This document shows, one piece after another, positions 18,066 through 62,865 of a stretch of 64,000 nt of DNA. Position 1 is the stretch's first letter; every line of letters begins with the position of its first letter. Below the pieces are notes generated by a model. The model made no database searches and had not been told where the DNA came from. It worked only from the letters and a program-made list of their open reading frames with translations. The translations under genes were made by a program, and so were the position numbers. The stretch comes from Heptranchias perlo (lineage: Eukaryota): contig NW_027139821.1 in NCBI RefSeq assembly GCF_035084215.1, positions 1 through 64,000 on the forward strand, written 5' to 3'.

Positions 18066-18532
18066 TGTCAGCCGTGGTCCAGTGGGCAGCACTCTCACCT
18101 CTGAGTCAGAAGGTCGTGGGTTCAATTCACACTCCAGAGACTTGAGCACTAAATCTAGGCTGACACGTGGAGTACTGAGGGAGTGCTGCATTGTCAGAGG
18201 TGCCGTCTTTCTGATGAGACGTTAAACTGAGGCCCCGTCTGCCCTCTCAGGTGGATGTGAAAGATCCCATGGCCACTATTTCGAAGAAGTGCAGGGGAGT
18301 TCTCCCCGGTGTCCTGGCCAATGTTTATCCCTCAAACAACATCACTAAAAAACACATTCTCTGCTCATTATCATATTGCTGTTTGTGGGATCTTGCTGTG
18401 TGATAATTGGCTGCCCCGTTTCCCACATTACAACAGTGACGACACTTTGAAAATACTTCATTGGCTGTAAAGTGCTTTGGGATGTCCTGGGTTGTGAAAG
18501 GTGCTATATAAATGCAAGTCTTTCTTTCTTTT
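18066..18532 (+). mobile_element. tRNA-derived DeuSINE (SacSINE1/AmnSINE-like) with L2-type tail
   Basis: A box tggtccagtggg and B box ggttcaattc; Deu-domain-like aaagatcccatggc..ccccggtgtcctggccaa; tail gctatataaatgcaagt(cttt)n. Confidence 0.8.
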
Positions 18533-22700: not shown

Positions 22701-22822
22701 TTGGCAACATTTTTGAAGTCTTACAGAAGACCCCCACAATGAAGGAGAGGAAAGCTATGGGGGGAGAACAAGCTTTCACCAGGCCTCTGATTCCCCATCA
22801 GGAGAAGGCAATGGACATTTTT

Positions 22823-23897
22823 AAAAATTCGTTCATGGGATGTGGGCGTCGCTGGCAAGGCCGGCATTTATTGCCCATCCCTAATTGCCCCTTGAGAAGG
22901 TGGTGGTGAGCCGCCTTCTTGAACTGCTGCAGTCCGTGTGGTGAAGGTTCTCCCACAGTGCTGTTAGGAAGGGAGTTCCAGAATTTTGACCCAGCGACGA
23001 TGAAGGAACGGTGATATATTTCCAAGTCGGGATGGTGTGTGACTTGGAGGGGAACGTGCAGGTGGTGTTGTTCCCATGTGCCTGCTGCCCTTATCCTTCT
23101 GGGTGGTGGAGGTCGCGGGTTTGGGAGGTGCTGTCAAAGAAGCCTTGGCGAGTTGCTGCAGTGCATCCTGCAGATGGTACACACTGCAGCCACAGTGTGC
23201 CGGTGGTGAAGGGAGTGAATGTTTAGGGTGGTGGATGGGGTGCCAATCAAGTGGGCTGCTTTGTCCTGGATGGTGTCGAGCTTCTTGAGTGTTGTTGGAG
23301 CTGCACTCATCCAGGCAAGTGGAGAGTATTCCATCACACTCCTGACTTGCGCCTTGTAGATGGCGGAAAGGCTTTGGGGAATCAGGAGGTGAGTCACTCG
23401 CTGCAGAATACCCAGCCTCTGACCTGCTCTTGTAGCCACAGTATTTACGTGGCTGGTCCAGTTAAGTTTCTGCTCAATGGTGACCCCCAGGATGTTGATG
23501 GTGGGGGATTTGGCGATGGTAATGTCGTTGAATGTCATGGGGAGATGGTTGGACTCTCTCTTGTTGGAGATGGTCATTGCCTGGCACTTGTCTGGCACGA
23601 ATGTTACTTGCCAGTTATCAGCCCAAGCCTGGATGTTGTCCAGGTCTTGCTGCATGCGGGCACGGACTGCTTCATTATCTGAGGGGTTGCGAATGGAACT
23701 GAACACTGTGCAATCATCAGCGAATATCCCCATTTCTGACCTTATGATGGAGGGAAGGTCATTGATGAAGCAGCTGAAGATGGTTGGGCCGAGGACACTG
23801 CCCTGAGGAACTCCTGCAGCAGTGCTCTGGGGCTGAGATGATTGGCCTCCAACAACCACTACCATCTTTCTTTGTGCTAGGTATGACTCCAGCCAAT
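22823..23897 (-). mobile_element. CR1/L2-group LINE 3' fragment (distinct family)
   Basis: [44 protein letters not shown]. Confidence 0.88.
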
Positions 23898-24121
23898 TGG
23901 GGAGACCAATATCTGAAGGAGCGGAGGGAGAATTGACAGGGTCTGTGTCAGCTGAAGGTTTGAAGCTCGACATTTGATATATCATTTCCCATGATCCAAA
24001 AGCATCGTCACTACCGGATTCAGACTGAGGCCTCTCCTGTACACATTACATTCCAGCTCCCACATCCAATCCCTCTTCCTGATCTCCATCCCTCAGTGGG
24101 CCCAAATCTCAAACATCAATG

Positions 24122-30800: not shown

Positions 30801-31646
30801 ATATTTCATTTTTGTTAAACTCACATTAAATATTATTATTGTCACCACTACTGCCACGTCTTGGCCATTCTTGACTGGCTTGTGTAATAAGTCCCTTTCA
30901 TGAGGTTCTCCATGAACACCCACACTTGATGCCACCCATTGGGTGACCCGACAGTGGGTGTATGTGTAGTTCCACGACTATTTTGTGCAGGTCCCTGTGG
31001 TGCAGCACTGTGTTGTGGAGCTCCATGTGGCGGAGGTGGACGGCGTGCCTGGCGAGGCTGGTGATGGTGCCCGTCCTCGGATGAAGTGATGAATGCAGCA
31101 ATGGTGCCCCCCATCCTGACGGTGTGAGTTTGAGGGGGTCCGCAAAGTGGGTAAATGTGTTTGTACAGCAGAGTTTAGGGTCTAAATTAATAATTTTGAG
31201 TGGAAAGACAAAGGTGTTGCAGCCAAAACTTAGTCTGAAGTGACAGAGTGCCCTGCTGCAATAAATGAGGTTTTCCCCCCACCTGTCAAATAATCCTTTG
31301 CATCTCCCACTGGCTGCTGAGTGAAACACGTCTGCTCCAACAGGGAGTGTTTCCCACAGCACGGGAAACACGCTGAGGATCCTTCAAAATTGCACCCCTG
31401 TCAAAATCTCCACTCAATGAGGTCTGTCAAGTACCTCAAGTATCTGACGATCTAAAGCAGCATCCCGCCGGCTTTAATTGCCGGTGGGAGTCCCACATTC
31501 GGGAGCTGCGCACGCACCCGAACACGTCACTGGGGAACCCGGAAGTCAGCGGGTTGGAGCTGGGCTCCGAAACTGCTCCGAGATTCCGCCATTTTAGGAG
31601 CCCCCCGCCCCCAATGCCGCCGCTCGGCCATCTGAAAATCGGCCCC
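27859..31646 (+). mobile_element. Non-autonomous Harbinger-type transposon with TIRs, 3-bp TSD and a Myb/SANT-like gene
   Basis: Left end GGCCCCGATATT, right end AAAATCGGCCCC; ATG duplicated at 27856-58 and 31647-49, and removal restores the CR1 sequence gaattATGatcact. Exon 1 MEQPRGKAAPRF..AWLEVAKEV..RTWIQCRKSFNDL (28120-28360). Premature stops; no DDE transposase domain recognised. Confidence 0.88.
29380..30197 (+). repeat. 33-bp in-frame minisatellite encoding (QGREGISEILS)n, ~25 copies
   Basis: Unit GAGGGAATCTCTGAGATACTGTCACAGGGACGT; frame preserved in ORF 28881-30365. Confidence 0.95.
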
Positions 31647-33459
31647 ATGATCACTCCCAGCAAAATGCTCTCCCACTGATCCTCCTTCCACTGCCCAGCT
31701 TTATCCCCGAAAACTAAATCCAGAACTGACCCCCCGCCCCCTCTTGTTGGGCTTGCTACGGACTGGATAAAAAAGTTCTCCTGAATGTAATTGATGAATT
31801 CTGCACCCTCTGTACCTTTTACACTGATTCTATCCCAGTTAATATCAGGGGCGTTGAAATCCCCCACTATTACTGCCCCATTGTTTTTGCACTTTTCAGA
31901 AATTTGCCTCCATATTTGCTCTTCTATCTCCCTCTGACTGTTTGGGGGTCTATCGTTCACTCCCAGCAGTGGGACTGCCCCTTTTTTTGTTCCTTTGCTC
32001 AACCCATGTGACCTCATTTGATGATCCTTTGAACATATCATCCCTCCTCACGGCCGTAATTGTTTCTTTAACCAATATTGCCCACCCCCCCTCCTTTTTT
32101 ATCCCCCTCTCTATCTCGTCTAAAAACCCTGTATCCAGGAACGTTGAGCTGCCATTCCTGCCCCCCAGTCAATCTCCATCAATGTGTCTACAACAGACCC
32201 ACTGATGAGGTGAGGAAAACCCCCAGTGGTGGAGAGATTTGGGAACCAGAGGTCCAAAGTCACCTGTTCCTCCCCAGCCTCTTACTCGAACGTCATGTCT
32301 CAAATTACTCATTTACTGTATCCCAAAATATTCAGTTCTGAAAGAAATCGATCTGATGTGTATTTGAATGAATGAACATTCTCTGCTCTGAGAACTTACT
32401 CCATTTACATAATCACAAGGAAATAAGGTGGAGAAGGGAGGTGATGTTGATGAAGATACGATGTTGTCTTGCTCATTGGAGGAACCATGCAACACATGAG
32501 CAGGAGCACTGAAGCTCCAGTGACTCACCTTTCCCACAGAAAATGTGGATTTACAAAAAACACCAACAAGTGGACTCTGGACCTGGAGCGCTGAGCGTCC
32601 ACTCACAGGGCAGACAGGTGGCGTGTCGGAGTCTCCGGCCATACACGGCTCCTTTCAGGCCAGCTGTAGTCCATGGGTGACAACAGGTCTGACCATGAGG
32701 GAGAGTTTCAAATCACTGCAGGCCTCCATGGGCCGTGTGGCCACTCCAAGCAGGCCTGCACAGGATGCTCCCAAGGAAGAGGGCCCTCGACCAGGAGCAG
32801 GCTGCTGCCTGGCATCCCACACTGCTGCCATGGAGGCCCTGGGCAACTAAATCAAGAGGGCTGTCTCCAAAGGTGGTTCCTAAGTTGCTGACAGGTTGGA
32901 GAGAGCTCTTGGCTCTGGCTTTCCCGATCTTTCAAGGACTATTGTAACTGCATTCCCTGAGTTCAGAGGCAGTGCCAGGAGCCAGTGGACATGTGGTCAG
33001 TTCCACAGTGAGCCAGTGATATGTGGTCTCAGGTTGGCAGGGTAAGTAAGGCCACTGTCCAGTCACTGCAGATACATTCAGAGGGCACCCTATGGCAGCA
33101 GGGCTAAGCTGCCCCTTGTGCTTTCTCAATCAGCTGATAGTGTAACCAGCCCACTGGCCGACTCTAGACACGAGAGCAGAAGGGACAGACAAGATCTCCC
33201 AGAGGCAGCAGAGGGGGAGCACTGGAATGGGAAAGCAGTGACAGAGTTCAGGGTGGACATGTAACTTTTATCCAGGTGGGATGGTGATGGTCAGTTTGAG
33301 TTACTGGCTGCTCTGGTAAGTCACTGACTAGTATTGTACTGGTCAAGGGGGGGTCAGGGTAATGGTTTAAGAGTCACCCCCTGATCTAATTGTTCCCGGT
33401 GTCCCTGGTACTCGATGTTCCAGGGTCTGGTCCTGGACAGAGTGAACACACAGCTGCAG

Positions 33460-36343: not shown

Positions 36344-36390
36344 TCAGGCTTGGGCTGATGAGTTCGAGGACGATTCTCCTCTTTCAGCAG
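36344..36390 (-). CDS. UAA: MHC class I cytoplasmic exon 2 with stop codon
   Basis: Acceptor cttttcttttcacAG|CT. Translates PAERGESSSNSSAQA*, a Ser-rich class I tail; TGA at 36346-36344 is followed by G|GTACG. Joined to the previous exon across an N gap. Confidence 0.82.
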
Positions 36391-37197: not shown

Positions 37198-37233
37198 GAT
37201 TTGCTGGGCTGTAACCAGATTTTTTCTCTCCTC
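37198..37233 (-). CDS. UAA: MHC class I cytoplasmic exon 1 (36 nt)
   Basis: Acceptor gtttctgtctcttgtAG|GA, donor AATC|GTAAGT. Translates GGEKKSGYSPAN with the conserved class I tail Tyr; phase 1 at both ends. Too short for the ORF track. Confidence 0.85.
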
Positions 37234-37894: not shown

Positions 37895-38020
37895 CTCTCT
37901 TCTTCCAGACAACGGCACCAATGACGAGAGCAATCAGGACGACGGCAGCAAGAACAATTCCAACAATTAAACCCAGATTCGGTCCCTCTGAAGATCCCGG
38001 AGTCACTCGGAACGTCCCAT
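37895..38020 (-). CDS. UAA: MHC class I connecting peptide/transmembrane exon
   Basis: Acceptor cttattccccccacAG|AT, donor AGAG|GTAGGA, 126 nt. Translates DGTFRVTPGSSEGPN-LGLIVGIVLAAVVLIALVIGAVVW-KKR (hydrophobic span plus basic stop-transfer). Confidence 0.92.
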
Positions 38021-42623: not shown

Positions 42624-42899
42624 CCCAGTCTCGGGTCTCCACTCCTGCTTTGCTGCTGTGATCCACCTGACAGGAGTAGGTGGCTCCGTCCTCGGGCCCG
42701 ATCTCAACCCATCTCTTGATCTGGTAGGTGCCATCGTGGTTGGGCAGGATGCCAGTGGAATCAGTGTCTGAGATCGGCCGTCCATTTCTCAGGAGGGTGA
42801 GTTCGATATCTCGAGGGTAAAACCCCGTGACCAGGCAGGAGAGTTGGGCCGGTTTAGTGTCTGAGGCCTTGTCCACAGAAAGAAACACTTGGGGAGTAA
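42624..42899 (-). CDS. UAA: MHC class I alpha3 (Ig C1-set) exon
   Basis: Acceptor ttttactctcAG|TT, donor TGGG|GTAAGA, 276 nt. Translates VTPQVFLSVDK..LSCLVTGFYPRDI..GILPNHDGTYQ..YSCQVDHSS..RDW; in frame with alpha2. Confidence 0.95.
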
Positions 42900-42938
42900 C
42901 TGAGAGTAAAACAGATCAGAGCCGAGTCAGTGTGAGAC

Positions 42939-43335
42939 AGGGAACGGTACAAACCCCTTTAAACTGGGGATTAGACCCCAGGGAACGGGACAAACCCCTT
43001 TAAACTGGGGATTAGACCCCAGGGAACGGGACAAACCCCTTTAAACTGGGGATTAGACCCCAGGGAACGGTACAAACCCCTTTAAACTGGGGATTAGACC
43101 CCAGGGAACGGGACAAACCCCTTTAAACTGGGGATTAGACCCCAGGGAACGGTACAAACCCCTTTAAACTGGGGATTAGACCCCAGGGAACGGTACAAAC
43201 ACCTTTAAACTGGGGATTAGACCCCAGGGAACGGGACAAACCCCTTTAAACTGGGGATTAGACCCCAGGGAACGGGACAAACCCCTTTAAACTGGGGATT
43301 AGACCCCACGGAACGGGACAAACCCCTTTAAACTG
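42939..43335. repeat. 41-bp minisatellite (AGGGAACGGGACAAACCCCTTTAAACTGGGGATTAGACCCC)n
   Basis: ~10 copies starting ~40 nt from the alpha3 acceptor; a remnant unit continues at 44468-44495. Confidence 0.93.
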
Positions 43336-44467
43336 TGTGCGGCTGCATCAAGCTGTGCATAGACCCTCAGTACGCAAACACAAAGTGTCACTACGTGCTG
43401 AGGTTCTACCTGTCCCCGGTGTTGAGAAGGATGGGCCTGGCCACGCTGCCACGGAACGCTCCGTCCAGTTGGACCGTTCCGCCCCACCTGTCCTTCGTGG
43501 AAAGGTTTGTGCAGGAAAACACCTTTGACCACAAGGCGATCAGCAAGTGGTCCGCACGTAACGTCCTCGAGACCCTGCGGGAAAAGGAGATGGTGGATCC
43601 TGTCGGTTGGTTCCCCGAGCAGACTGTCAATGTCATTTGGCAGAACGCCTCATCACCAGAGCTTTCAAACAAGCACCAAGACCTAGCTTGGCTGGTGGTG
43701 AGAAGGGCCCTTCCCGTCAGATCCTTCATGCACTCCCGGACTCTCAGTGCCACCGCGCGCTGTCCCAGAGGAGGCTGCGGTGGAGACGAGACCGTCACCC
43801 ATCTCCTTCTGGAATGTGCCTTTGCAAAGAAGGTGTGGAGAGAGATGCAGTGGTATCTGTCCAGGTTCATCCCGAGCAGTTCCGTAACACAGGTTTCTGT
43901 GCTCTACGGGCTGTTCCCGGGGACGCACACCGAGACGGACATTGGCTGCTGCTGGAAGACCATCAACTCGGTGAAAGACGCCCTTTGGTCTGCCCGAAAC
44001 TTGCTGGTCTTCCAGCACAAGGAGCTGTCCTCGACCGAGTGTTGCAGACTGGCACATTCCAAGGTCCAGGACTACGTGCTGAGGGACGCACTGAGGATGG
44101 GTGCGGCCGCCGCAAAGGCTCTGTGGGGAAAGGCAACCGTTTAGAGCCTTCCCGCCATTGTAAACCGAGGGGCTGCAATCAGGGAAAAACCCCCTCGGGC
44201 AGAATGTAAAATTCAAATTGCTGTAATGTACCTGTAATGAATCTGTAATGAATCTGTAAGCAATAATCTGTGTTGAGCATGATGCATTGAGGCACCCTAG
44301 AGTGTCATGAACTGTAATTATGTCCAATGTGTTCATTGTACTGCACTTAACGTAACCTGCAAATTGTAAAATCTGTATTGTGTACGTTTGGAAAGTGATA
44401 TCACAACTGTATTGTATGTATTGCTGCAAATTTTATGAATAAAGTATATTTTTTGAAAAAAAAACAA
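43336..44467 (+). mobile_element. L1/Tx1-clade LINE, 5'-truncated, with intact ORF2 C-terminus, poly(A) and TSD
   Basis: zf-RVT-type CCHC motif (ARCPRGGCGGDETVTHLLLECAFAKKVW); AATAAA plus A-tail at ~44438-44467; flanking ACAAACCCCTTTAAACTG at 43318-43335 and 44468-44485. Confidence 0.88.
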
Positions 44468-44492
44468 ACAAACCCCTTTAAACTGGGGATTA

Positions 44493-47400
44493 GACTCTCA
44501 CTCCCCCCCTCACTCACCGACTCTCACTCCCCCCTCACTCACCGACTCTCACTCCCACCCCTCACTCACCGACTCTCAGTGCCCCCTCACTCACCGACTC
44601 TCACTCCCCCCTCACTCACCGACTCTCAGTGCCCCCTCACTCACCGACTCTCAGTCCCTCCCTCAATCACCGACTCTCAGTCCCTCCCTCACTCACCGAC
44701 TCTCACTCCCCCCCTCACTCACCGACTCTCACTCCCCCCCTCACTCACCGACTCTCAGTCCCTCCCTCAATCACCGACTCTCAGTCCCTCCCTCACTCAC
44801 CGACTCTCAGTGCCCCCCTCACTCACCGACTCTCAGTCCCTCCCTCAATCACCGACTCTCAGTCCCTCCCTCACTCACCGACTCTCAGTGCCCCCTCACT
44901 CACCGACTCTCAGTCCCCCCCTCACTCACCGACTCTCAGTCCCTCCCTCAATCACCGACTCTCAGTCCCCCCCCTCACTCACCGACTCTCAGTCCCTCCC
45001 TCAATCACCGACACCCACTCCCCCCTCACTCACCGACTCTCAGTGCCCCCCTCAATCACCGACTCTCAGTCCCCCCCTCACTCACCGACTCTCACTCACC
45101 GACTCTAATTCCCCCCCTCACTCACCGACTCAGTCCCCCCCTCACTCACCGAGTCTCACTCCACCCTCACTCACCGACTCTCACTCCCCCCTCACTCACC
45201 GACTCTCACTCCCCCCCTCACTCACCGACTCTCACTCCCCCCCTCACTCACCGACTCTCAGTTCACGCCTCACTCACCGACTCTCACTCCCCCCCTCACT
45301 CACCGACTCTCACTCCCCCCCTCACTCACTGACTCTCACTCCCCCCCCTCACTCACCGACTCTCACTCCCCCCCTCACTCACCGACTCTCAGTCCCCCCT
45401 CACTCACCGACTCTCAGTGCCCCCCTCACTCACCGACTCTCAGTCCCCCCCTCACTCACCGACACCCACTCCCCCCTCACTCACCGACTCTCACTCCCCC
45501 CTCACTCACCGACTCAGTCCCCCCCTCACTCACCGACTCTCACTCCCCTGCTCACTCACCGACTCTCAGTCCCCCCCTCACTCACTGACTCTCACTCCCC
45601 CGTCACTCACCGACACCCACTCCCCCCTCACTCACCGACTCTCACTCCCCCCCTCACTCACCGACTCTCAGTCCCCCCCTCACTCACTGACTCTCACTCC
45701 CCCCTCACTCACCGACTCTCAGTCCCCCCCCTCAATCACCGACTCTCAGTCCCTCCCTCACTCACCGACTCTCACTCCCCCCCTCACTCACCGACTCTCA
45801 GTCCCTCCCTCACTCACCGACTCTCACTCCCCCCCCTCACTCACCGACTCTCAGTCCCCCCCCCACACTCACCGACTCTCACTCCCCCCTCACTCACCGA
45901 CTCTCAGTCTCCCCCTCACTCACCGACTCTCAGTCCCCCCCTCACTCACCGACTCTCAGTCCCTCCCTCACTCACCGACTCTCACTCCCCCCTCACTCAC
46001 CGACTCTCAGTCCCCCCTCACTCACCGACTCTCAGTCCCCCCCCCCTCACTCACCGACTCTCACTCCCCCCTCACTCACCGACTCTCAGTCCCCCCCCCT
46101 CACTCACGGACTCTCACTCCCCCCTCACTCACCGACTCTCAGTCCCCCCCCCTCACTCACGGACTCTCAGTCCCCCCCTCACTCACCGACTCTCAGTGCC
46201 CCCCTCACTCACCGACTCTCACTCCCCCCTCACTCACCGACTCTCAGTCCCTCCCTCAATCACCGACACTCAGTCCCTCCCTCACTCACCGACTCTCACT
46301 CCCCCCCTCACTCACCGACTCTCAGTCCCCCCCCCTCACTCACCGACTCTCAGTCCCCCCCTCACTCACCGACTCTCAGTGCCCCCCTCACTCACCGACT
46401 CTCACTCCCCCCTCACTCACCGACTCTCAGTCCCTCCCTCAATCACCGACACTCAGTCCCTCCCTCACTCACCGACTCTCACTCCCCCCCCTCACTCACC
46501 GACTCTCAGTCCCCCCCCTCACTCACCGACTCTCAGTCCCTCCCTCAATCACCGACACTCAGTCCCTCCCTCACTCACCGACTCTCACTCCCCCCCCTCA
46601 CTCACCGACTCTCACTCCCCCCCTCACTCACCGACTCTCAGTCCCCCCCTCACTCACCGACTCTCAGTGCCCCCCTCACTCACCGACTCTCACTCCCCCC
46701 TCACTCACCGACTCTCAGTCCCTCCCTCAATCACCGACTCTCAGTCCCTCCCTCACTCACCGACTCTCACTCCCCCCCCTCACTCACCGACTCTCAGTCC
46801 CCCCTCACTCACCGACTCTCACTCCCCCCCTCACTCACCGACTCTCAGTCCCCCCCCTCACTCACCGACACTCAGTTCACCCCTCACTCACCGACTCGCA
46901 CTCCCCCCCTCACTCACCGACTCTCACTCCCCCCCTCACTCACCGACTCTCAGTCCCCCCCCCTCACTCACCGACTCTCACTCCCCCCTCACTCACCGAC
47001 ACCCACTCCCCCCTCACTCACCAACTCTCACTCCACCCTCACTCACCGACTCAGTCCCCCCCTCACTCACCGAATCTCACTCCCCCCCTCACTCACCGAC
47101 ACCCACTCCCCCCTCACTCACCGACTCTCACTCCCCACTCACTCACCGACTCACTCCCCCCCCTCACTCACCGACTCTCAGTCCCCCCCTCACTCACCGA
47201 CTCTCACACCCCCTCAGTCACCGACTCTCACTCCCCCCCCTCACTCACCGACTCTCACTCCCCCCCTCATACACCGACTCTCAGTCCCTCCCTCACTCAC
47301 TGACTCTCACTCCCCCCTCACTCACCGACTCTGAGTCCCCCCTCACTCACTGACTCTCACTCCCCCACCTCACTCACCGACTCTCACTCCCCCCCTCACT

Positions 47401-50400
47401 CACCAACTCTCACTCCCCCCTCACTCACCGACTCTCAGTCCCCCCCTCACTCACCGACTCTCACTCCCCCCCCTCACTCACCGACTCTCACTCCTCCCCT
47501 CACTCACCGACTCTCACTCCCCCCCTCACTCACCGACTCTCACTCCCCCCCTCACTCACCGACTCTCACTCCCCCCCTCACTCACCGACTCTCACTACCC
47601 CCCTCACTCACCGACTCTCAGTCCCCCCTCACTCACCGACTCTCACTCCCCCCCCTCACTCACCGACTCTCAGTCCCCCCCTCACTCACCGACTCTCAGT
47701 CCCCCCCTCACTCACCGACTCTCAGTCCCCCCCTCACTCACCGACTCAGTCCCCCCCTCACTCACCGACTCTCACTCCCCCCTCACTCACCGACTCTCAC
47801 TCCCCCCCTCACTCACCGACTCTCACTCCCCCCCTCACTCACCGACTCTCACTACCCCCTCACTCACCGACTCTCAGTCCCCCCTCACTCACCGACTCTC
47901 AGTCCCCCCTCACTCACCGACTCTCACTCCCCCCTCACTCACCGACTCAGTCCCCCCCTCACTCACCGACTCAGTCCCCCCCCTCACTCACCGACTCTCA
48001 CTCCCCCCTCACTCACCGACTCTCAGTCCCCCCCCTCACTCACCGACTCTCACTCCCCCCCTCACTCACCGACTCTCAGTCCCCCCTCACTCACCGACTC
48101 TCACTCCCCCCTCACTCACCGACTCTCACTCCCCCCCTCACTCACCGACTCTCACTCCCCCCCTCACTCACCGACTCTCACTCCCCCCTCACTCACCGAC
48201 TCTGAGTCCCCCCCTCACCCACCGACTCTCACTCCCCCCTCACTCACCGACACCCACTCCCCCCTCACTCACCGACTCTCAGTCCCCTCCCTCAATCACC
48301 GACTCTCAGTCCCTCCCTCACTCACCGACTCTCACTCCCCCCCTCACTCACCGACACTCAGTTCACCCCTCACTCACCGACTCTCACTCCCCCCCTCACT
48401 CACCGACTCTCACTGCCCCCTCACTCACCGACTCTGAGTCCCCCCCTCACTCACCGACTCTCACTCCCCCCTCACTCACCGACTCTGAGTCCCCCCCTCA
48501 CTCACCGACTCTCACTCCCCCCTCACTCACCGACTCAGTCCCCCCCTCACTCACCGACTCTCACTCCCCCCCTCACTCACCGATTCTCACTCCCCCTTCA
48601 CTCACCGACACCCACTCCCCCCTCACTCCCCGACTCTCACTCCCCCCCTCACTCACCGACTCTCAGTCCCCCCCTCATTCACCGACTCTCACTCCCCCCT
48701 CACTCACCGACTCACAGTCCCCACTCACTCACCGACTCTCAGTGCCCCCCTCAATCACCGACTCTCACTCCCCCCCTCACTCAACCAACTCTCACTCCCC
48801 CCCTCACTCACCGACTCTCAGTCCCTCCCTCACTCACCGACTCTCACTCCCCCCCTCACTCACCGACTCTCACTCCCCCCCTCACTCACCAACTCTCACT
48901 CCCCCCCTCACTCACCGACTCTCAGTCCCCCCCCTCACTCACCGACTCTCACTCCCCCCCTCACTCACCGACTCTCACTCCTCCCCTCACTCACCGAATC
49001 TCAATCCCCCCTCACTCACCGACTCTCACTCCCCCCCTCACTCACCGACTCTCACTCCCCCCCTCACTCACCGACTCTCACTACCCCCTCACTCACCGAC
49101 TCTCAGTCCCCCCTCACTCACCGACTCTCACTCCCCCCCCTCACTCACCGACTCTCAGTCCCCCCTCACTCACCGACTCTCAGTCCCCCCCTCACTCACC
49201 GGCTCTCAGTCCCCCATCACTCACCGACTCTCACTCCCCCCTCACTCACCGACTCTCACTCCCCCCTCACTCACCGACTCTCAGTCCCCCCCTCACTCAC
49301 CGACTCAGTCCCCCCCCTCACTCACCGACTCTCACTCCCCCCTCACTCACCGACTCTCACTCCCCCCCCTCACTCACCGACTCTCACTCCCCCCCTCACT
49401 CACCGACTCTCACTACCCCCCTCACTCACCGACTCTCAGTCCCCCCCTCACTCACCGACTCTCAGTCCCCCCCTCACTCACCGACTCTCACTCCCCCCCT
49501 CACTCACCGACTCAGTCCCCCCCTCACTCACCGACTCAGTCCCCCCCTCACTCACCGACTCTCACTCCCCCCCTCACTCACCGACTCTCAGTCCCCCCCC
49601 TCACTCACCGACTCTCACTCCCCCCCCTCACTCACCGACTCTCAGTCCCCCCTCACTCACCGACTCTCACTCCCCCCTCACTCACCGACTCTCACTCCCC
49701 CCCTCACTCACCGACTCTCACTCCCCCCCCTCACTCACCGACTCTCACTCCCCCCTCACTCACCGACTCTGAGTCCCCCCCTCACCCCACCGACTCTCAC
49801 TCCCCCCCTCACTCACCGACACCCACTCCCCCCTCACTCACCGACTCTCAGTCCCTCCCTCAATCACCGACTCTCAGTCCCTCCCTCACTCACCGACTCT
49901 CACTCCCCCCCTCACTCACCGACACTCAGTTCACACCTCACTCACCGACTCTCACTCCCCCCCTCACTCACCGACTCTCACTGCCCCCCTCACTCACCGA
50001 CTCTGAGTCCCCCCCTCACTCACCGACTCTCACTCCCCCCTCACTCACCGACTCTGAGTCCCCCCCTCACTCACCGACTCTCACTCCCCCCTCACTCACC
50101 GACTCAGTCCCCCCCCTCACTCACCGACTCTCACTCCCCCCCTCACTCACCGATTCTCACTCCCCCTTCACTCACCGACACCCACTCCCCCCTCACTCCC
50201 CGACTCTCACTCCCCCCCTCACTCACCGACTCTCAGTCCCCCCCTCATTCACCGACTCTCACTCCCCCCCTCACTCACCGACTCACAGTCCCCACTCACT
50301 CACCGACTCTCAGTGCCCCCCTCAATCACCGACTCTCACTCCCCCCCTCACTCAACCAACTCTCACTCCCCCCCTCACTCACCGACTCTCAGTCCCTCCC

Positions 50401-53400
50401 TCACTCACCGACTCTCACTCCCCCCCTCACTCACCGACTCTCAGTCCCCCCTCACTCACCGACTCAGTCCCCCCCTCACTCACCGACTCTCACTCCCCCC
50501 CCTCACTCACCGATTCTCACTCCCCCCTCACTAACCGACACCCACTCCCCCCTCACTCCCCGACTCTCACTCCCCCCCTCACTCACCGACTCTCAGTCCC
50601 CCCCTCACTCACCGACTCTCAGTCCCCCCTCACTCACCGACTCTCGGTGCCCCCCTCACTCACCGACTCTCAGTCCCTCCCTCACTCACCGACTCTCACT
50701 CCCCCCCTCACTCACCGACTCTCAGTCACCCCTCACTCACCGACTCTCACTCCCCCCCTCACGCACCGACTCTCAGTTCACCCCTCACTCACCGACTCTC
50801 ACTCCCCCCCTCACTCACCGTCTCTCAGTCCCCCCCTCACTCACCGACTCTCACTCCCCCCCTCACTCACCGACTCTCACTCCCCCCCTCACTCACCGAC
50901 TCTCACTCCCCCCCTCACTCACCGACTCTCAGTTCACCCCTCACTCACCGACTCTCACTCCCCCCCTCACTCACCGACTCTCAGTCCCCCCCCTCACTCA
51001 CCGACTCTCAGTTCACCCCTCACTCACCGACTCTCACTCCCCCCCTCACTCACCGTCTCTCAGTCCCCCCCTCACTCACCGACTCTCACTCCCCCCCTCA
51101 CTCACCGACTCTCACTCCCCCCCTCACTCACCGACTCTCACTACCCCCTCACTCACCGACTCTCAGTCCCCCCTCACTCACCGACTCTCAGTCCCCCCTC
51201 ACTCACCGACTCTCACTCCCCCCTCACTCACCGACTCAGTCCCCCCCCTCACTCACCGACTCAGTCCCCCCCTCACTCACCGACTCTCACTCCCCCCCTC
51301 ACTCACCGACTCTCAGTCCCCCCCCTCACTCACCGACTCTCACTCCCCCCCTCACTCACCGACTCTCAGTCCCCCCTCACTCACCGACTCTCACTCCCCC
51401 CTCACTCACCGACTCTCACTCCCCCCCTCACTCACCGACTCTCACTCCCCCCCTCACTCACCGACTCTCACTCCCCCCTCACTCACCGACTCTGAGTCCC
51501 CCCCTCACCCACCGACTCTCACTCCCCCCTCACTCACCGACACCCACTCCCCCCTCACTCACCGACTCTCAGTCCCTCCCTCAATCACCGACTCTCAGTC
51601 CCTCCCTCACTCACCGACTCTCACTCCCCCCCTCACTCACCGACACTCAGTTCACACCTCACTCACCGACTCTCACTCCCCCCCTCACTCACCGACTCTC
51701 ACTGCCCCCTCACTCACCGACTCTGAGTCCCCCCCTCACTCACCGACTCTCACTCCCCCCTCACTCACCGACTCTGAGTCCCCCCCTCACTCACCGACTC
51801 TCACTCCCCCCTCACTCACCGACTCAGTCCCCCCCTCACTCACCGACTCTCACTCCCCCCCTCACTCACCGATTCTCACTCCCCCTTCACTCACCGACAC
51901 CCACTCCCCCCTCACTCCCCGACTCTCACTCCCCCCCTCACTCACCGACTCTCAGTCCCCCCTCATTCACCGACTCTCACTCCCCCCTCACTCACCGACT
52001 CACAGTCCCCACTCACTCACCGACTCTCAGTGCCCCCCTCAATCACCGACTCTCACTCCCCCCCTCACTCAACCAACTCTCACTCCCCCCCTCACTCACC
52101 GACTCTCAGTCCCTCCCTCACTCACCGACTCTCACTCCCCCCCTCACTCACCGACTCTCAGTCCCCCCTCACTCACCGACTCAGTCCCCCCCTCACTCAC
52201 CGACTCTCACTCCCCCCCTCACTCACCGATTCTCACTCCCCCCTCACTAACCGACACCCACTCCCCCCTCACTCCCCGACTCTCACTCCCCCCCTCACTC
52301 ACCGACTCTCAGTCCCCCCTCACTCACCGACTCTCAGTCCCCCCTCACTCACCGACTCTCGGTGCCCCCCTCACTCACCGACTCTCAGTCCCTCCCTCAC
52401 TCACCGACTCTCACTCCCCCCCTCACTCACCGACTCTCAGTCACCCCTCACTCACCGACTCTCACTCCCCCCCTCACGCACCGACTCTCAGTTCACCCCT
52501 CACTCACCGACTCTCACTCCCCCCCTCACTCACCGTCTCTCAGTCCCCCCCTCACTCACCGACTCTCACTCCCCCCCTCACTCACCGACTCTCACTCCCC
52601 CCCTCACTCACCGACTCTCACTCCCCCCCTCACTCACCGACTCTCAGTTCACCCCTCACTCACCGACTCTCACTCCCCCCTCACTCACCGACTCTCAGTC
52701 CCCCCCCTCACTCACCGACTCTCAGTTCACCCCTCACTCACCGACTCTCACTCCCCCCCTCACTCACCGTCTCTCAGTCCCCCCCTCACTCACCGACTCT
52801 CACTCCCCCCCTCACTCACCGACTCTCACTCCCCCCCTCACTCACCGACTCTCACTCCCCCCCTCACTCACCGACTCTCAGTTCACCCCTCACTCACCGA
52901 CTCTCACTCCCCCCTCACTCACCGACTCTCAGTCCCCCCCCTCACTCACCGACTCTCCGTCCCCCCCTCACTCACCGACTCTCACTCCCCCCTCACTCAC
53001 CGACACCCACTCGCCCCTCACTCACCGACACTCACTCCCCCCCCTCACTCACCGACTCTCACTCCCCTCCTCACTCACCGACTCTCAGTCCCCCCCTCAC
53101 TCACCGACTCTCACTCCCCCCCTCATACACCGACTCTCAGTCCCTCCCTCACTCACTGACTCTCACTCCCCCCTCACTCACCGACTCTCAGTGCCCCCCT
53201 CAATCACCGACTCTCAGTCCCTCCCTCACTCACCGACTCTCACTCCCCCCCCTCACTCACCGACTCTCACTCCCCCCCTCACTCACCGACTCTCAGACCC
53301 TCCCTCACTCACCGACTCTCATTCCCCCCTCACGCACCGACTCTCACTCCCCCCTCACTCACCGACTCTCTGTCCCCCGCCCCTTACTCACCGACTCTCA

Positions 53401-56400
53401 CTCCCCCCTCACTCACCGACTCTCAGTCCCCCCCTCACTCACCGACTCTCAGTCCCTCCCTCACTCACCGACTCTCACTCCCCCCCTCACTCACCGACTC
53501 TCAGTCCCCCCTCACTCACCGACTCTCACTCCCCCCTCACTCACCGACTCTCAGTTCACCCCTCACTCACCGACTCTCAGTCCCCCCCTCACTCACCGAC
53601 TCTCACTCCCCCCTCACTCACCGACACCCACTCCCCCCTCACTCACCGACTCTCACTCCCCCCTCACTCACCGACTCAGTCCCCCCCTCACTCACCGAAT
53701 CTCACTCCCCCCCTCACTCACCGACTCTCACTCCCCCCTCACTCACCGACACCCACTCCCCCCTCACTCACCGACTCTCACTCCCCCCTCACTCACCGAC
53801 TCAGTCCCCCCCTCACTCACCGACACTCACTCCCCCCTCACTCACCGACACCCACTCCCCCCTCACTCAGCGACTCTCACTCCCCCCCTCATACACCGAC
53901 TCTCAGTCCCTCCCTCACTCACTGACTCTCACTCCCCCCTCACTCACCGTCTCTCACTCCCCCCTCACTCAACGACTCTCAGTCCCCCTCTCACTCACCG
54001 ACTCTCACTCCCCCGCTCACTCACCGACTCTCAGTCCCCCCTCACTCACCGACTCTCACTCCCCCCCCTCACTCACCGACTCTCAGTTCACCCCTCACTC
54101 ACCGACTCTCACTCCCCCCCTCACTCACCGACTCTCACTCACCGACTCTCAGTCCCCCCCTCACTCACCGACTCAGTCCCCCCCTCACTCACTGACTCTC
54201 ACTCCCCCCCTCACTCACCGACTCTCAGTCCCCCCCTCAATCACCGACTCTCAGTCCCTCCCTCACTCACCGACTCTCACTCCCCCCCTCACTCACCGAC
54301 TCTCAGTCCCTCCCTCACTCACCGACTCTGACTCCCCCCCTCACTCACCGACTCTCAGTCCCCCCCCCTCACTCACCGACTCTCACTCCCCCCTCACTCA
54401 CCGACTCTCAGTCTCCCCCTCACTCACCGACTCTCAGTGCCCCCCTCAATCACCGACTCTCACTCCCCCCCTCACTCACCGACTCTCAGTCCCCCCCTCA
54501 CTCACCGACTCTCAGTCCCCCCTCACTCACCGTCTCTCACTCCCCCCTCACTCACCGACTCTCAGTGCCCCCCTCAATCACCGACTCTCAGTCCCTCCCT
54601 CACTCACCGACTCTCACTCCCCCCCTCACTCACCGACTCTCAGTCCCCCCTCACTCACCGACTCTCACTCCCCCCCTCACTCACCGACTCTCAGTGCCCC
54701 CCTCAATCACCGACTCTCAGTCCCTCCCTCACTCACCGACTCTCACTCCCCCCCTCACTCACCGACTCTCAGTCCCCCCTCACTCACCGACTCTCACTCC
54801 CCCCCTCACTCACCGACACTCAGTTCACCCCTCACTCACCGACTCTCACTCCCCCCCTCACTCACCGACTCTCACTCCCGCCTCACTCACCGACTCTCAG
54901 TCCCCCCCCCCTCACTCACCGACTCTCAGTCCCCCCCTCACTCACCGACTCTCACTCCCCCCTCACTCACCGACACCCACTCCCCCCTCACTCACCGACA
55001 CTCACTCCTCCCTCACTCACCGACTCAGTCCCCCCCTCACTCACCGAATCTCACACCCCCCTCACTCACCGACACCCACTCCCCCCCCTCACTCACCGAC
55101 TCTCACTCCCCCCTCACTCACCGACACCCACTCCCCCCCTCACTCACCGACACTCACTCCCCCCTCACTCACCGACTCTCAGTCCCCCCCTCACTCACCG
55201 ACTCTCACTCCCCCCCTCACTCACCGACTCTCACTCCTCCCCTCAATCACCGACTCTCAGTCCCCCCCTCACTCACCGACTCTCACTCCCCCCCTCACTC
55301 ACCGACTCTCACTCCCCCCTCACTCACCGACTCTCAGTCCCCCCCTCACTCACCGACTCTCACTCCCCCCCCTCACTCACCGACTCTCACTCCCCCCTCA
55401 CTCACCGACTCTCAGTCCCCCCCTCACTCACCGACTCTCACTCCCCCCCTCACTCACCGACTCTCACTCCTCCCCTCAATCACCGACTCTCAGTCCCTCC
55501 CTCACTCACCGACTCTCACTCCCCCCCCTCACTCACCGACACTCAGTTCACCCCTCACTCACCGACTCTCACTCCCCCCCTCACTCACCGACTCTCACTG
55601 CCCCCTCACTCACCGACTCTGAGTCCCCCCCTCACTCACCGACTCTCACTCCCCCCTCACTCACCGACTCTGAGTCCCCCCCCTCACTCACCGACTCTCA
55701 CTCCCCCCCTCACTCACCGACTCAGTCCCCCCCTCACTCACCGACTCTCACTCCCCCCCTCACTCACCGATTCTCACTCCCCCTTCACTCACCGACACCC
55801 ACTCCCCCCTCACTCCCCGACTCTCACTCCCCCCCTCACTCACCGACTCTCAGTCCCCCCTCATTCACCGACTCTCACTCCCCCCTCACTCACCGACTCT
55901 CAGTCCCCACTCACTCACCGACTCTCAGTGCCCCCCTCAATCACCGACTCTCACTCCCCCCCTCACTCACCGACTCTCACTCCCCCCCTCACTCACCGAC
56001 TCTCAGTCCCTCCCTCACTCACCGACTCTCACTCCCCCCCTCACTCACCGACTCTCAGTCCCCCCTCACTCACCGACTCTCAGTCCCCCCTCACTCACCG
56101 ACTCTCAGTGCCCCCCTCAATCACCGACTCTCAGTCCCTCCCTCACTCACCGACTCTCACTCCCCCCCTCACTCACCGACTCTCAGTTCCTCCCTCACTC
56201 ACCGACTCTCACTCCCCCCCTCACTCACCGACTCTCAGTCCCCCCTCACGCACCGACTCCCACTCCCCCCCTCACTCACCGTCTCTCAGTCCCCCCCTCA
56301 CTCACCGACTCTCACTCCCCCCCTCACTCACCGACTCTCACTCCCCCCCTCACTCACCGACTCTCACTCCCCGACTCTCAGTTCACCCCTCACTCACCGA

Positions 56401-59400
56401 GTCTCACTCCCCCCTCACTCACCGACTCTCAGTCCCCCCCCTCACTCACCGACTCTCCGTCCCCCCCTCACTCACCGACTCTCACTCCCCCCTCACTCAC
56501 CGACACCCACTCGCCCCTCACTCACCGACACTCACTCCCCCCCTCACTCACCGACTCTCACTCCCCTCCTCACTCACCGACTCTCAGTCCCCCCCTCACT
56601 CACCGACTCTCACTCCCCCCCTCATACACCGACTCTCAGTCCCTCCCTCACTCACTGACTCTCACTCCCCCCTCACTCACCGACTCTCAGTGCCCCCCTC
56701 AATCACCGACTCTCAGTCCCTCCCTCACTCACCGACTCTCACTCCCCCCCTCACTCACCGACTCTCACTCCCCCCCTCACTCACCGACTCTCAGACCCTC
56801 CCTCACTCACCGACTCTCATTCCCCCCCTCACTCACCGACTCTCACTCCCCCCTCACTCACCGACTCTCTGTCCCCCGCCCCTCACTCACCGACTCTCAC
56901 TCCCCCCTCACTCACCGACTCTCAGTCCCCCCCTCACTAACCGACTCTCAGTGCCCCCCTCAATCACCGACTCTCAGTCCCTCCCTCACTCACCGACTCT
57001 CACTCCCCCCTCACTCACCGACTCTCAGTTCACCCCTCACTCACCGACTCTCAGTCCCCCCCTCACTCACCGACTCTCACTCCCCCCTCACTCACCGACA
57101 CCCACTCCCCCCTCACTCACCGACTCTCACTCCCCCCTCACTCACCGACTCAGTCCCCCCCTCACTCACCGAATCTCACTCCCCCCCTCACTCACCGACT
57201 CTCACTCCCCCCTCACTCACCGACACCCACTCCCCCCTCACTCACCGACTCTCACTCCCCCCTCACTCACCGACTCAGTCCCCCCCTCACTCACCGACAC
57301 TCACTCCCCCCTCACTCACCGACTCTCACTCCCCCCTCACTCACCGACTCAGTCCCCCCCTCACTCACCGACACTCACTCCCCCCTCACTCACCGACACT
57401 CACTCCCCCCTCACTCAGCGACTCTCACTCCCCCCCTCATACACCGACTCTCAGTCCCTCCCTCACTCACTGACTCTCACTCCCCCCTCACTCACCGTCT
57501 CTCACTCCCCCCTCACTCAACGACTCTCAGTCCCCCTCTCACTCACCGACTCTCACTCCCCCGCTCACTCACCGACTCTCAGTCCCCCCTCACTCACCGA
57601 CTCTCACTCCCCCCCTCACTCACCGACTCTCAGTTCACCCCTCACTCACCGACTCTCACTCCCCCCCTCACTCACCGACTCTCACTCACCGACTCTCAGT
57701 CCCCCCCTCACTCACCGACTCAGTCCCCCCCTCACTCACTGACTCTCACTCCCCCCTCACTCACCGACTCTCAGTCCCCCCCTCAATCACCGACTCTCAG
57801 TCCCTCCCTCACTCACCGACTCTCACTCCCCCCCTCACTCACCGACTCTCAGTCCCTCCCTCACTCACCGACTCTGACTCCCCCCCTCACTCACCGACTC
57901 TCAGTCCCCCCCCCCTCACTCACCGACTCTCACTCCCCCCTCACTCACCGACTCTCAGTCTCCCCCTCACTCACCGACTCTCACTCCCCCCCTCACTCAC
58001 CGACTCTCAGTCCCCCCCTCAATCACCGACTCTCAGTCTCCCCCTCACTCACCGACTCTCAGTCCCCCCCTCACTCACCGACTCTCAGTCCCCCCTCACT
58101 CACCGACTCTCACTCCCCCCCTCACTCACCGTCTCTCACTCCCCCCTCACTCACCGACTCTCAGTGCCCCCCTCAATCACCGACTCTCAGTCCCTCCCTC
58201 ACTCACCGACTCTCACTCCCCCCCTCACTCACCGTCTCTCACTCCCCCCTCACTCACCGACTCTCAGTGCCCCCCTCAATCACCGACTCTCAGTGCCCCC
58301 CTCACTCACCGACTCTCACTCCCCCCCTCACTCACCGACTCTCAGTCCCCCCTCACTCACCGACTCTCACTCCCCCCTCACTCACCGACTCTCAGTCCCC
58401 CCCTCACTCACCGACTCTCAGTCCCCCCTCACTCACCGACTCTCACTCCCCCCTCACTCACCGACTCTCACTCCCCCCCTCACTCACCGACACTCAGTTC
58501 ACCCCTCACTCACCGACTCTCACTCCCCCCCTCACTCACCGACTCTCACTCCCCCCCTCACTCACCGACTCTCACTCCCCCCCCTCACTCACCGACTCTC
58601 ACTCCCCCCTCACTCACCGTCTCTCAGTCCCCCCTCACTCACCGACACTCACTCCACCCCCTCACTCACCGTCTCTCACTCCACCCCCTCACTCACCGTC
58701 TCTCAGTCCCCCCCTCTCTCACCGACTCTCACTCCCCCCTCACTCACCGACTCTCACTCCCCCCTCACTCACCGACTCTCAGTCCCCCCTCACTCACCGA
58801 CTCTCACTCCCCCCCTCACTCACCGACTCTCACTCCCCCCTCACTCACCGACTCTCACTCCCCCCTCACTCACCGACTCTCAGTCCCCCCCTCACTCACC
58901 GACTCTCACTCCCCCCCTCACTCACCGACTCTCACTCACCGACTCTCACTCCCCCCTCACTCACCGACTCTCAGTCCCCCCCTCACTCACTGACTCTCAC
59001 TCCCCCCCCACTCACCGACTCTCACTCCCCCCCTCACTCACCGACTCTCACTCCCCCCCTCACTCACCGACTCTCACTCCCCCCCCTCACTCACCGACTC
59101 TCACTCCCCCCCTCACTCACCGTCTCTCAGTCCCCCCTCACTCACCGACACTCACTCCACCCCCTCACTCACCGTCTCTCACTCCACCCCCTCACTCACC
59201 GTCTCTCACTCCACCCCCTCACTCACCGACTCTCACTCCCCCCCCTCACTCACCGACTCTCAGTCCCCCCCTCACTCACCGACTCTCAGTCTCCCCCTCA
59301 CTCACCGACTCTCACTCCCCCCCTCACTCACCGACTCTCAGTCCCCCCCTCAATCACCGACTCTCAGTCTCCCCCTCACTCACCGACTCTCAGTCCCCCC

Positions 59401-62400
59401 CTCACTCACCGACTCTCAGTCCCCCCTCACTCACCGACTCTCACTCCCCCCCTCACTCACCGTCTCTCACTCCCCCCTCACTCACCGACTCTCAGTGCCC
59501 CCCTCAATCACCGACTCTCAGTCCCTCCCTCACTCACCGACTCTCACTCCCCCCCTCACTCACCGACTCTCAGTCCCCCCCTCACTCACCGACTCTCAGT
59601 GCCCCCCTCAATCACCGACTCTCAATCCCTCCCTCACTCACCGACTCTCACTCCCCCCTCACTCACCGACTCTCACTCCCCCCCTCACTCACCGACACTC
59701 AGTTCACCCCTCACTCACCGACTCTCACTCCCCCCCTCACTCACCGACTCTCACTCCCCCCCTCACTCACCGACTCTCACTCCCCCCCTCACTCACCGAC
59801 TCTCACTCCCCCCTCACTCACCGTCTCTCAGTCCCCCCTCACTCACCGACACTCACTCCACCCCCTCACTCACCGTCTCTCACTCCACCCCCTCACTCAC
59901 CGTCTCTCAGTTCCCCCCCTCACTCACCGACTCTCACTCCCCCCCTCACTCACCGACTCTCACTCCCCCCTCACTCACCGACTCTCACTCCCCCCTCACT
60001 CACCGACTCTCAGTCCCCCCCTCACTCACCGACTCTCACTCCCCCCCCTCACTCACCGACTCTCACTCACCGACTCTCACTCCCCCCTCACTCACCGACT
60101 CTCAGTCCCCCCCTCACTCACTGACTCTCACTCCCCCCCCACTCACCGACTCTCACTCCCCCCCTCACTCACCGACTCTCACTCCCCCCCTCACTCACCG
60201 ACTCTCACTCCCCCCCTCACTCACCGACTCTCACTCCCCCCTCACTCACCGTCTCTCAGTCCCCCCTCACTCACCGACACTCACTCCACCCCCTCACTCA
60301 CCGTCTCTCACTCCACCCCCTCACTCACCGTCTCTCACTCCACCCTCACTCACCGACTCTCACTCCCCCCTCACTCACCGACTCTCACTCCCCCCCCTCA
60401 CTCACCGACTCTCAGTCCCCCCCTCACTCACCGACTCTCACTCCCCCCCTCACTCACCGACTCTCACTCCCCCCTCACTCACCGACTCTCAGTCCCCCCC
60501 TCACTCACCGACTCTCAGTCCCCCCTCACTCACCGTCTCTCACTCCACCCCCTCACTCACCGTCTCTCAGTCCCCCCCTCACTCACCGACTCTCACTCCC
60601 CCCCCTCACTCACCGACTCTCAGTCCCCCCCTCACTCACCGACTCTCAGTCCCCCCCTCACTCACCGACTCTCACTCCCCCCTCACTCACCGACTCTCAG
60701 TCCCCCCCTCACTCACCGACTCTCAGTCCCCCCCGTCACTCACCGACTCTCACTCCCCCCTCACTCACCGACTCTCACTCCCCCCCCTCACTCACCGACT
60801 CTCACTCCCCCCCCACTCACCGACTCTCACTCCCCCCCTCACTCACCGACTCTCACTCCCCCCCTCACTCACTGATTCTCACTCCCCCCCCACTCACCGA
60901 CTCTCACTCCCCCCCTCACTCACCGACTCTCACTCCCCCCCTCACTCACCGACTCTCACTCCCCCCCTCACTCACCGACTCTCACTCCCCCCCCACTCAC
61001 CGACTCTCACTCCCCCCCTCACTCACCGACTCTCACTCCCCCCCTCACTCACCGACTCTCACTCCCCCCCTCACTCACCGACTCTCACTCCCCCCCTCAC
61101 TCACCGACTCTCACTCCCCCCCTCACTCACCGACTCTCACTCCCCCCTCACTCACCGACTCTCAGTTCCCCCCTCACTCACCGACTCTCACTCCCCCCCT
61201 CACTCACCGACTCTCACTCCCCCCCTCACTCACCGACTCTCACTCCCCCCCTCACTCACCGACACTCACTCCACCCCCTCACTCACCGTCTCTCAGTCCC
61301 CCCCTCACTCACCGACTCTCACTCCCCCCCTCACTCACCGACTCTCACTCCCCCCCTCACTCACCGACTCTCACTCCCCCCCTCACTCACCGACGTTCAC
61401 TCCCCCCTCACTCACCGACTCTCACTCCCCCCTCACTCACCGACTCTCAGTCCCCCCCTCACTCACCGACTCTCAGTCCCCCCTCACTCACCGACTCTCA
61501 GTCCCCCCCTCACTCACTGACTCTCACTCCCCCCTCACTCACCGACTCTCACTCCCCCCTCACTCACCGACTCTCACTCCCCCCCTCACTCATCGACTCT
61601 CACTCCCCCCCTCACTCACTGATTCTCAGTCCCCCCTCACTCACTGACTCTCACTCCCCCCCCACTCACCGACTCTCACTCCCCCCCTCACTCACCGACT
61701 CTCACTCCCCCCCTCACTCACCGACTCTCACTCCCCCCCTCACTCACCGACTCTCACTCCCCCCTCACTCACCGTCTCTCAGTCCCCCCTCACTCACCGA
61801 CACTCACTCCACCCCCTCACTCACCGTCTCTCAGTCCCCCCCTCACTCACCGACTCTCACTCCCCCCCTCACTCACCGACTCTCACTCTCCCCCTCACTC
61901 ACCGACTCAGTCCCCCCCTCACTCACCGACTCTCAGTCCCCCCCTCACTCACCGACTCTCAGTCCCCCCCTCACTCACCGACTCTCACTCCCCCCTCACT
62001 CACCGACTCTCAGTCCCCCCCTCACTCACCGACTCTCAGTCCCCCCTCACTCACCGACTCTCACTCCCCCCCCACTCACCGACTCTCACTCCCCCCCTCA
62101 CTCATCGACTCTCACTCCCCCCCTCACTGATCGACTCTCACTCCCCCCTCACTCACCGACTCTCGCTCCCCCCCTCACTCATCGACTCTCACTCCCCCCC
62201 TCACTGATCGACTCTCACTCCCCCCTCACTCACCGACTCTCAGTCCCCCCTCACTCACCGACTCTCACTCCGCCCCCTCACTCACCGACTCTCTCTCCCC
62301 CCCTCACTCACCGACTCTCACTCCCCCCTCACTCACCGACACCCACTCCCCCCTCACTCACCGACTCTCACTCCCCCCTCACTCACCGACTCTCAGTCCC

Positions 62401-62592
62401 CCCCTCACTCACCGACTCTCAGTCCCCCCCTCACTCACCGACTCTCAGTCCCCCCTCACTCACCGACTCTCAGTCCCCCCCTCACTCACTGACTCTCACT
62501 CCCCCCCCACTCACCGACTCTCACTCCCCCCCTCACTCATCGACTCTCACTCCCCCCCTCACTCATCGACTCTCACTCCCATCCTCACTCAC
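44493..62592. repeat. ~18 kb ~26-bp satellite (CTCACTCACCGACTCTCA[C/G]TCCCCCC)n filling the alpha2-alpha3 intron
   Basis: Continuous tandem array of roughly 700 units with variable C-run; runs up to the alpha2 donor. Confidence 0.98.
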
Positions 62593-62865
62593 CGGCCCTC
62601 AGTTCCCTCTTTCCGTAGTCGAGGTATTTCCTCAGCCACTCGATGCACTCCTCCTCCAGGTATCCCTTCCACCGCTGGTTCCAGGCCCTGTCCTGGTCCC
62701 ACTTGTTCTTGGTGATCTCTCCCCACTGTACCGGTGTTACCCACACCATGTGTTCCAGATCGAAGCTGATGAAATCCTTCCCGTCCCAGCTGTCCTGATA
62801 GAACCCTCTCGTGGTCCCATCATTCCCCAGCTCACAGCCGTACATCACCTGGATCGTGTGGATTC
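62593..62865 (-). CDS. UAA: MHC class I heavy chain, alpha2 exon (classical/UAA-like)
   Basis: Acceptor ttgattgacAG|GAATCCAC, donor GCCG|GTGAGT, 273 nt, phase 1. Translates GIHTIQVMYGCELG..DGKDFISFD..TKNKW..GYLEEECIEWLRKYL, with the C101/C164 pair and anchors T143, K146, W147, Y159, Y171 (HLA-A2 numbering, aligned by eye). Symbol tentative because alpha1 is not in the window. Confidence 0.95.

Follow-up and report, generated by a model that had tools for sequence, protein, structure and literature searches.

How does a vertebrate gene choose its splice site when the authentic donor is followed by some 700 near-copies of itself? [quoted passage not shown] The intron between the alpha2 and alpha3 exons is 19,693 nt long (62592 to the acceptor at 42900/42899), and 18.1 kb of it (92%) is a tandem array of 26-bp units built around a splice donor. 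This array is a donor-spanning minisatellite that grew from the alpha2 end and its donor. We consider it likely that it expanded without selection for a function, and that the gene tolerates it because splicing takes place at the first donor. The elements concerned are the following.

62593..62865, minus strand: alpha2 exon, 273 nt (Pfam MHC_I, E=1.5e-27), with copy-specific stretches present in RNA contigs.
62584..62596, minus strand: authentic alpha2 splice donor, GCCG followed by GTGAGTGAG, which is unit 1 of the array and the point where RNA contigs leave the exon for alpha3.
44493..62592, minus strand: 26-bp donor-spanning minisatellite of ~705 units, with GTGAGT at 628 of 701 junctions and 58% G.
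42624..42899, minus strand: alpha3 exon, 276 nt (Pfam C1-set, E=8.2e-18), to which RNA contigs join the end of alpha2.

Tandem Repeats Finder (TRF) places the array at 44493-62601 with a period of 26 bp (52-bp dimer). We parsed it into 702 units, four of them double, giving 701 junctions and ~705 units altogether. GT is kept in 683 of these junctions, GTGAGT in 628 and TCG/GTGAGT (the slash marks the boundary) in 576. The ~700 decoy donors that a first-pass annotation of this DNA had announced on the sense (minus) strand, 44493..62600, are thus real, and the true donor is indeed in register with them as the first unit: the alpha2 exon ends in GCCG and the intron opens with GTGAGTGAG at 62592. 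Within the array, the sense strand has 652 copies of GTGAGT and the opposite strand none, as against 17 and 16 on the two strands of the remaining 35.7 kb of the window. Such a bias might point to a selected platform of predicted U1 sites, acting as a sponge, as a guard against premature polyadenylation or as a ladder for recursive splicing, but it already follows from the birth of the array at a donor.

The window array comprises 97 distinct unit types. Blocks of units reappear 1.7 kb and 3.3-3.5 kb away (at the 1.7-kb spacing, 43 of 50 units agree), the mark of growth by unequal exchange. Seven of the 18 junctions without GT lie within the first 40 units. Two features had escaped the first-pass annotation: the two decoys nearest to the true donor, at 62566 and 62540, are inactivated (GT to AT), and the common decoy forms 6 Watson-Crick pairs with U1 versus 7 for the true donor, donor strength being judged here by U1 pairing only.

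We compared the repeat unit with the end of the exon. In the common C-type unit, 13 of the last 17 bases are those of the alpha2 exon end (shuffle p 4e-4), as are 9 of the last 11 (shuffle p 5e-4); the remaining 44.4 kb of the window hold 3 matches of this kind. Twelve array units encode E-L-R-V in the exon frame. The alpha2 exons of this genome end in E-L-R-A or E-L-M-A, whereas 5 of the 49 homologues that we parsed have E-L-R-V. Given the tail match and these E-L-R-V endings, the unit appears to combine the last ~17 exon bases with 9 intron bases, probably those of an older allele. These results, together with the finding that all exact matches to the unit lie at this donor, support the earlier proposal that the array originated from the exon-intron junction.

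We wondered whether the repeat is a property of this donor or of the genome at large. An alpha2 search of the 3.25-Gb genome returned 31 matches, 11 of them at 72-100% identity. In all 11 the array begins exactly at the donor; among the more distant class I loci, 9 were inspected and none has an array behind the donor (11 further matches lay outside this sample). A twelfth locus, on contig C526, starts inside such an array and runs on to an alpha3 exon. An exact 23-mer of the unit has 557 forward and 393 reverse matches genome-wide (950 in all), and the twelve class I loci account for every one, always on the sense strand. We therefore rejected a genome-wide satellite, the outcome that the first-pass annotation had named as fatal to its proposal.

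Array length varies widely among the copies. Nine arrays are short (254, 407, 432, 477, 616, 664, 715, 1,083 and 1,313 bp) and three are long: 13,747 bp on contig C1438, at least 17,856 bp on C526 and 18,095 bp in the window. Unit number thus spans 10 to ~700 within one genome (10, 16-50, 530, 700), ~70-fold, and near-identical gene copies carry just 10-50 units. C526 is colinear with the window over 12.6 kb downstream, at 98.7-98.8% identity, and is probably the second allele of the window locus. The two arrays share 21 of the 97 unit types of the window, and their longest exact match is 154 bp. Pure repeats are hard to assemble, and C526 breaks inside its array, so an assembler might have over-expanded a short array to 18 kb. 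We find this hardly credible: the window array contains 97 unit types and its block duplications are imperfect (43 of 50 units at 1.7 kb), and the 13.7-kb and ≥17.9-kb arrays, with different variant units, stand on two other contigs.

Is the host gene intact and expressed? The window and the contig's next 26 kb together yield seven coding exons, which are separated by GT-AG introns and encode 355 aa in one open frame. The exons not yet described are:

37895..38020, minus strand: transmembrane exon, joined to alpha3 in RNA contigs.
37198..37233, minus strand: first cytoplasmic exon, with an open frame and GT-AG borders.
36344..36390, minus strand: last coding exon with the stop, from the gene model.
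G000:C1654:74125-74173: leader exon, outside the window on the same contig.
G000:C1654:67684-67944: alpha1 exon, outside the window on the same contig.

In alpha2, the chain is 55-81% identical to class I proteins of sharks and rays; the named proteins nearest to it are class I chains of sharks, with one labelled Heptranchias perlo at the top. Reading the 355-aa frame by eye, we found Y7, Y59, R84, T143, K146, W147, Y159 and Y171, which we take to be the classical class I peptide-anchoring set in its usual numbering. By its predicted product, this is an intact gene for an MHC class I heavy chain of the classical shark type. The intact frame and the GT-AG exon borders led us to reject a pseudogene; a stop within the alpha2 exon was seen in one copy of the family (L010). 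Classical class Ia of sharks (UAA) is linked to TAP and PSMB8/9; a search for proteasome-family genes gave 26 matches, none of them on contig C1654 (only 90 kb) or on the contigs of the paralogues, and so put no PSMB8/9 beside the gene.

The RNA data consist of assembled contigs from four runs of one sample in one study, which we count as RNA because contigs join alpha1 to alpha2, alpha2 to alpha3, and alpha3 to the transmembrane exon. Stretches of 60-69 nt specific to the window copy (4-13 letters off each of 10 paralogues) are matched exactly in three runs, in contigs of depth 5,385-17,817. Thus, the long-array copy is transcribed. Among the matches listed, 20 contigs from four runs reach the alpha3 acceptor, all carrying the alpha2 exon end in front of it (agreement 0.99-1); 3 contigs proceed from the true donor into alpha3, and the intron has its real acceptor at 42900 only. 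Joins from array units to alpha3, which the first-pass annotation had suggested seeking, are absent among the listed contig matches at the donor and the alpha3 acceptor. The junction letters are common to the paralogues, so that splicing at the true donor describes the main product of the gene family.

We then examined the array for signs of decoy function. If the decoys were selected as decoys, their donor bases should be better conserved than the rest of the unit. We compared the 9 donor positions with 9 other fixed unit positions over 2,147 junctions from 12 loci. Variant frequency is 3.5% at the donor positions and 3.4% at the others, and the locus-variant classes number 11.3 and 10.9 (p 0.82 and 0.86): across these junctions, donor bases are conserved no better than other unit bases, and nothing suggests that the donor is either preserved or purged. 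Recursive splicing requires an acceptor, that is, a polypyrimidine tract and AG, directly followed by a donor. The 18.1-kb array contains no usable acceptor: AGGT occurs just 3 times, and no 15-mer has more than 7 pyrimidines. The stepwise splicing proposed earlier is therefore not supported. Nor is there a polyadenylation signal to silence: AATAAA and ATTAAA, the canonical signals counted, are both absent from the entire 19,693-nt intron, which speaks against U1 suppression of premature polyadenylation.

A third form of U1 platform would be a sponge. Unused donors are able to bind U1 in early complexes (PMC3413131). On the other side stand the unconserved donor bases and the near-identical copies that do with 10-50 units. 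Mammalian cells contain about a million U1 particles. By simple arithmetic, if a few tens of transcripts were being made at a time, each with ~630 sites, they could tie up no more than a few percent of these. We regard a selected U1 platform, in any of its three forms, as very improbable.

Could array length instead tune class I output, through decoy use and nonsense-mediated decay (NMD) or through slower transcription and splicing? Reading past the donor gives G-E-stop in all 11 copies with an alpha2 exon, which bears out the earlier claim of an immediate in-frame stop and places a stop two codons after any decoy. We rejected the idea of a designed stop codon: the stop is the donor sequence GTGAGTGA itself, read in phase 1. 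The ~70-fold span of lengths among the copies and the two dead nearest decoys of the window copy also suit a putative dial, and tandem repeats in humans have been associated with splicing levels (PMC10078293). Yet RNA of the longest-array copy is abundant, at the depths given above (although depth gives no ranking of genes), decoy joins do not appear among the RNA matches listed, the donor bases show no selective signal, and splicing of human F7 is unchanged from 1 to 12 units (PMC1557585). We think such a dial improbable.

By its layout, the array is a published kind of repeat, the donor-spanning ("mirage", F7 IVS7-type) minisatellite, and the shark case is extreme in size and family-wide. 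Its units run head to tail, the first one spans the boundary, copy number varies (within one genome) and the true donor is used. Human examples are a 37-bp variable number tandem repeat in F7 intron 7 (IVS7) and repeats in IFI6 (6-16) intron 2, CBS intron 13, LMNB2 and PDGF (Borensztajn et al. 2006, PMC1557585). In F7 IVS7 minigenes with 1-12 units, only the most upstream site was used, even with stronger sites downstream (PMC1557585). As in these human cases, the first shark unit spans the exon-intron boundary, the donor is repeated into the intron, G-runs are present and the authentic donor is mainly used (PMC1557585). The human arrays are far smaller, with 5-9 units in F7, 15-20 in CBS and 25 pseudo-sites in IFI6, the largest published case we found, against ~700 in the shark, or ~28 times IFI6 (PMC1557585). 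Unlike the human cases, moreover, the shark array fills 92% of its intron, is common to a 12-copy family and has decoys that differ from the true donor at position -3. The amphioxus mirages of Adh3 and of the globins BflGb6/BflGb9, which do not disturb splicing, are similar in their duplicated boundary with splice signals, unstable length, concerted evolution within arrays and lack of a reported splicing effect (Ebner et al. 2010, PMC3087553). BflGb6 has 3-6 units, while the shark has hundreds of 26-bp units in an immune gene of a jawed vertebrate (PMC3087553).

How might the array have arisen and been tolerated? One ancestral duplication of ~17 exon and 9 intron bases would have founded it. 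All copies of the class I family would have inherited it, and it would have spread with gene duplication and conversion. Slippage and unequal exchange, favoured by G-runs, could then have expanded it, unstably, in a gene where nearly every intron has a minisatellite. Exon definition and 5'-to-3' order would select the true donor, and the additional pair that it forms with U1 would help. NMD would remove any rare decoy product, owing to the stop at codon +2. As a mechanism, the array is probably ordinary.

Several observations weigh against this account of an unselected, tolerated minisatellite. The units are homogenised, so that the per-position counts are not independent and the comparison of donor bases is a coarse test. 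The nearest decoys are dead in 2 of 11 copies (two in the window, the first in one other), while junctions lacking GT make up 8% overall across the copies; this may hint at selection against a leak. The C526 array is close to the window array in length (at least 17.9 kb) despite its different variant units, a closeness that is not an obvious expectation under neutral turnover. The RNA check is insensitive to rare decoy use: contigs lose rare forms, a decoy contig would overlap alpha3 by ~30 letters only, and NMD would deplete decoy products from the data. RNA contigs cover none of the first four array units, a gap that carries no evidential weight. Human IFI6 and CBS use their two proximal pseudo-sites (PMC1557585), and in vitro, where U1 binds to each of two strong donors, splicing uses the downstream one (PMC3413131). 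Because of these last two reports, a small leak into the decoys is possible.

The array may also matter as DNA. On contig C1438 (G000:C1438:1497-15880; L029, L030), an alpha2 exon and its 13.7-kb array stand before an alpha3 exon that belongs to another ancient lineage. This alpha2 is 96% identical to that of contig C1057 and differs from that of the window at 0 of 25 fourfold sites. In a tree of 28 rows, for which 26 sequences were chosen by hand from 68 protein matches, the C1438 alpha3 falls outside the clade that unites the window alpha3 with those of Heterodontus, Squalus and Pristiophorus (support 98/95). On this tree, two alpha3 types coexist in sharks, and both are ancient. The switch of lineage in C1438 lies at the 3' end of the array, ~70 nt ahead of the acceptor, and alpha2, together with its array, appears to have passed as one module between old lineages of alpha3. 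The other 11 copies have alpha3 exons 99-100% identical behind alpha2 exons 87-100% identical. Among the alpha2 copies L001-L011, DNA differences reach 13%, but fourfold sites differ at only 0-2 of 21-25 (five pairs counted). Diverse alpha2 with so few fourfold changes, next to uniform alpha3, is the pattern expected of diversifying selection plus homogenisation.

These data suggest a reading, compatible with a tolerated minisatellite, in which the array acts as a G-rich transcribed zone where conversion or crossover tracts end, moving peptide-binding alpha1-alpha2 modules from one class I gene to another. The C1438 switch, the 11 copies with uniform alpha3 behind diverse alpha2, and a sense strand of 58% G with a G4Hunter-type score of 1.34 would fit it. 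The switch is a single event, however, and its location is expected because any alpha2/alpha3 exchange must end in this intron, which is nearly all array. Class I families commonly combine a homogenised alpha3 with diverse alpha1-alpha2, and the array lacks AGCT switch-type motifs. We consider a role as exchange zone improbable. A combined version, in which array length (10-700 units) is a heritable dial, the locus with the main expression is recognisable by a long array that controls its output by way of decoy splicing and decay, and the same tract is the zone where peptide-binding modules change between ancient alpha3 lineages, seems to us unlikely as well.

Repeats are frequent throughout the gene: five of its six introns carry arrays of 26-65-bp units, and a (CT)n tract lies in the remaining one. 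In the alpha2-alpha3 intron, what lies outside the 26-bp array is a 41-bp array, interrupted by an antisense fragment of a long interspersed nuclear element (LINE), and ~38 nt of acceptor region:

44470..44492, minus strand: partial unit split off the 41-bp array, directly adjoining the 26-bp array.
43336..44470, plus strand, antisense to the gene: 5'-truncated non-LTR LINE fragment of ~1.1 kb (Pfam zf-RVT, E=1.3e-11).
42938..43335, minus strand: 41-bp minisatellite of ~10 units (TRF, intron structures).

The 41-bp minisatellite has 4-14 units in 11 of 11 copies with the alpha3 type of the window. The LINE fragment inside it is absent from the 10 other copies with the same acceptor type, and the insertion is usable as an allele marker. 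The donor of the leader exon is also reiterated, in a 65-bp array of 10 units outside the window (G000:C1654:~74124-73480); each unit begins with GTGAGT or GTGGGT, the unit tail is unlike the exon end, and the four paralogues in which the leader exon was located have 8-16 units. A second giant array occupies positions 1-8624 of the window and reaches the contig end (38-bp unit, at least 8.6 kb, G-rich on the minus strand); as far as seen, it is unrelated to any splice site. Positions 8700-19600 form a ~10-kb block with several minisatellites, of which an inverted duplicate with ~98% identity lies beside the class I copy on contig C1050 (354-364 kb). Further LINE fragments (RVT_1, endonuclease) are found downstream of the gene at 22008-24045, 26580-27218 and 31436-32047.

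The gene's seven exons are those of elasmobranch class Ia (UAA) and Ia-like heavy chains, and several Ia-like copies have been reported near the elasmobranch Ia gene (PMC10751288). The words "intron" and "satellite" do not occur in the main text of that paper, Verissimo et al. 2023 (PMC10751288), and a literature search that left most subscription papers outside listed no paper with a title or opening abstract lines describing this array or tandem donors in shark class I introns.

Taken together, these results describe a vertebrate gene that is transcribed and spliced at its true donor despite more than 600 near-identical donors behind it, against 5-25 in the human cases. One genome offers a natural series of unit numbers (10, 16-50, 530 and 700) in which the donor is always the same and the acceptor is shared by 11 of the 12 copies. 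The series is a ready test of the "first donor wins" rule against the proximity rule seen in vitro. For shark class I itself, the array accounts for contig breaks within the loci, and it marks the limit of a probable exchange of alpha2/alpha3 modules.

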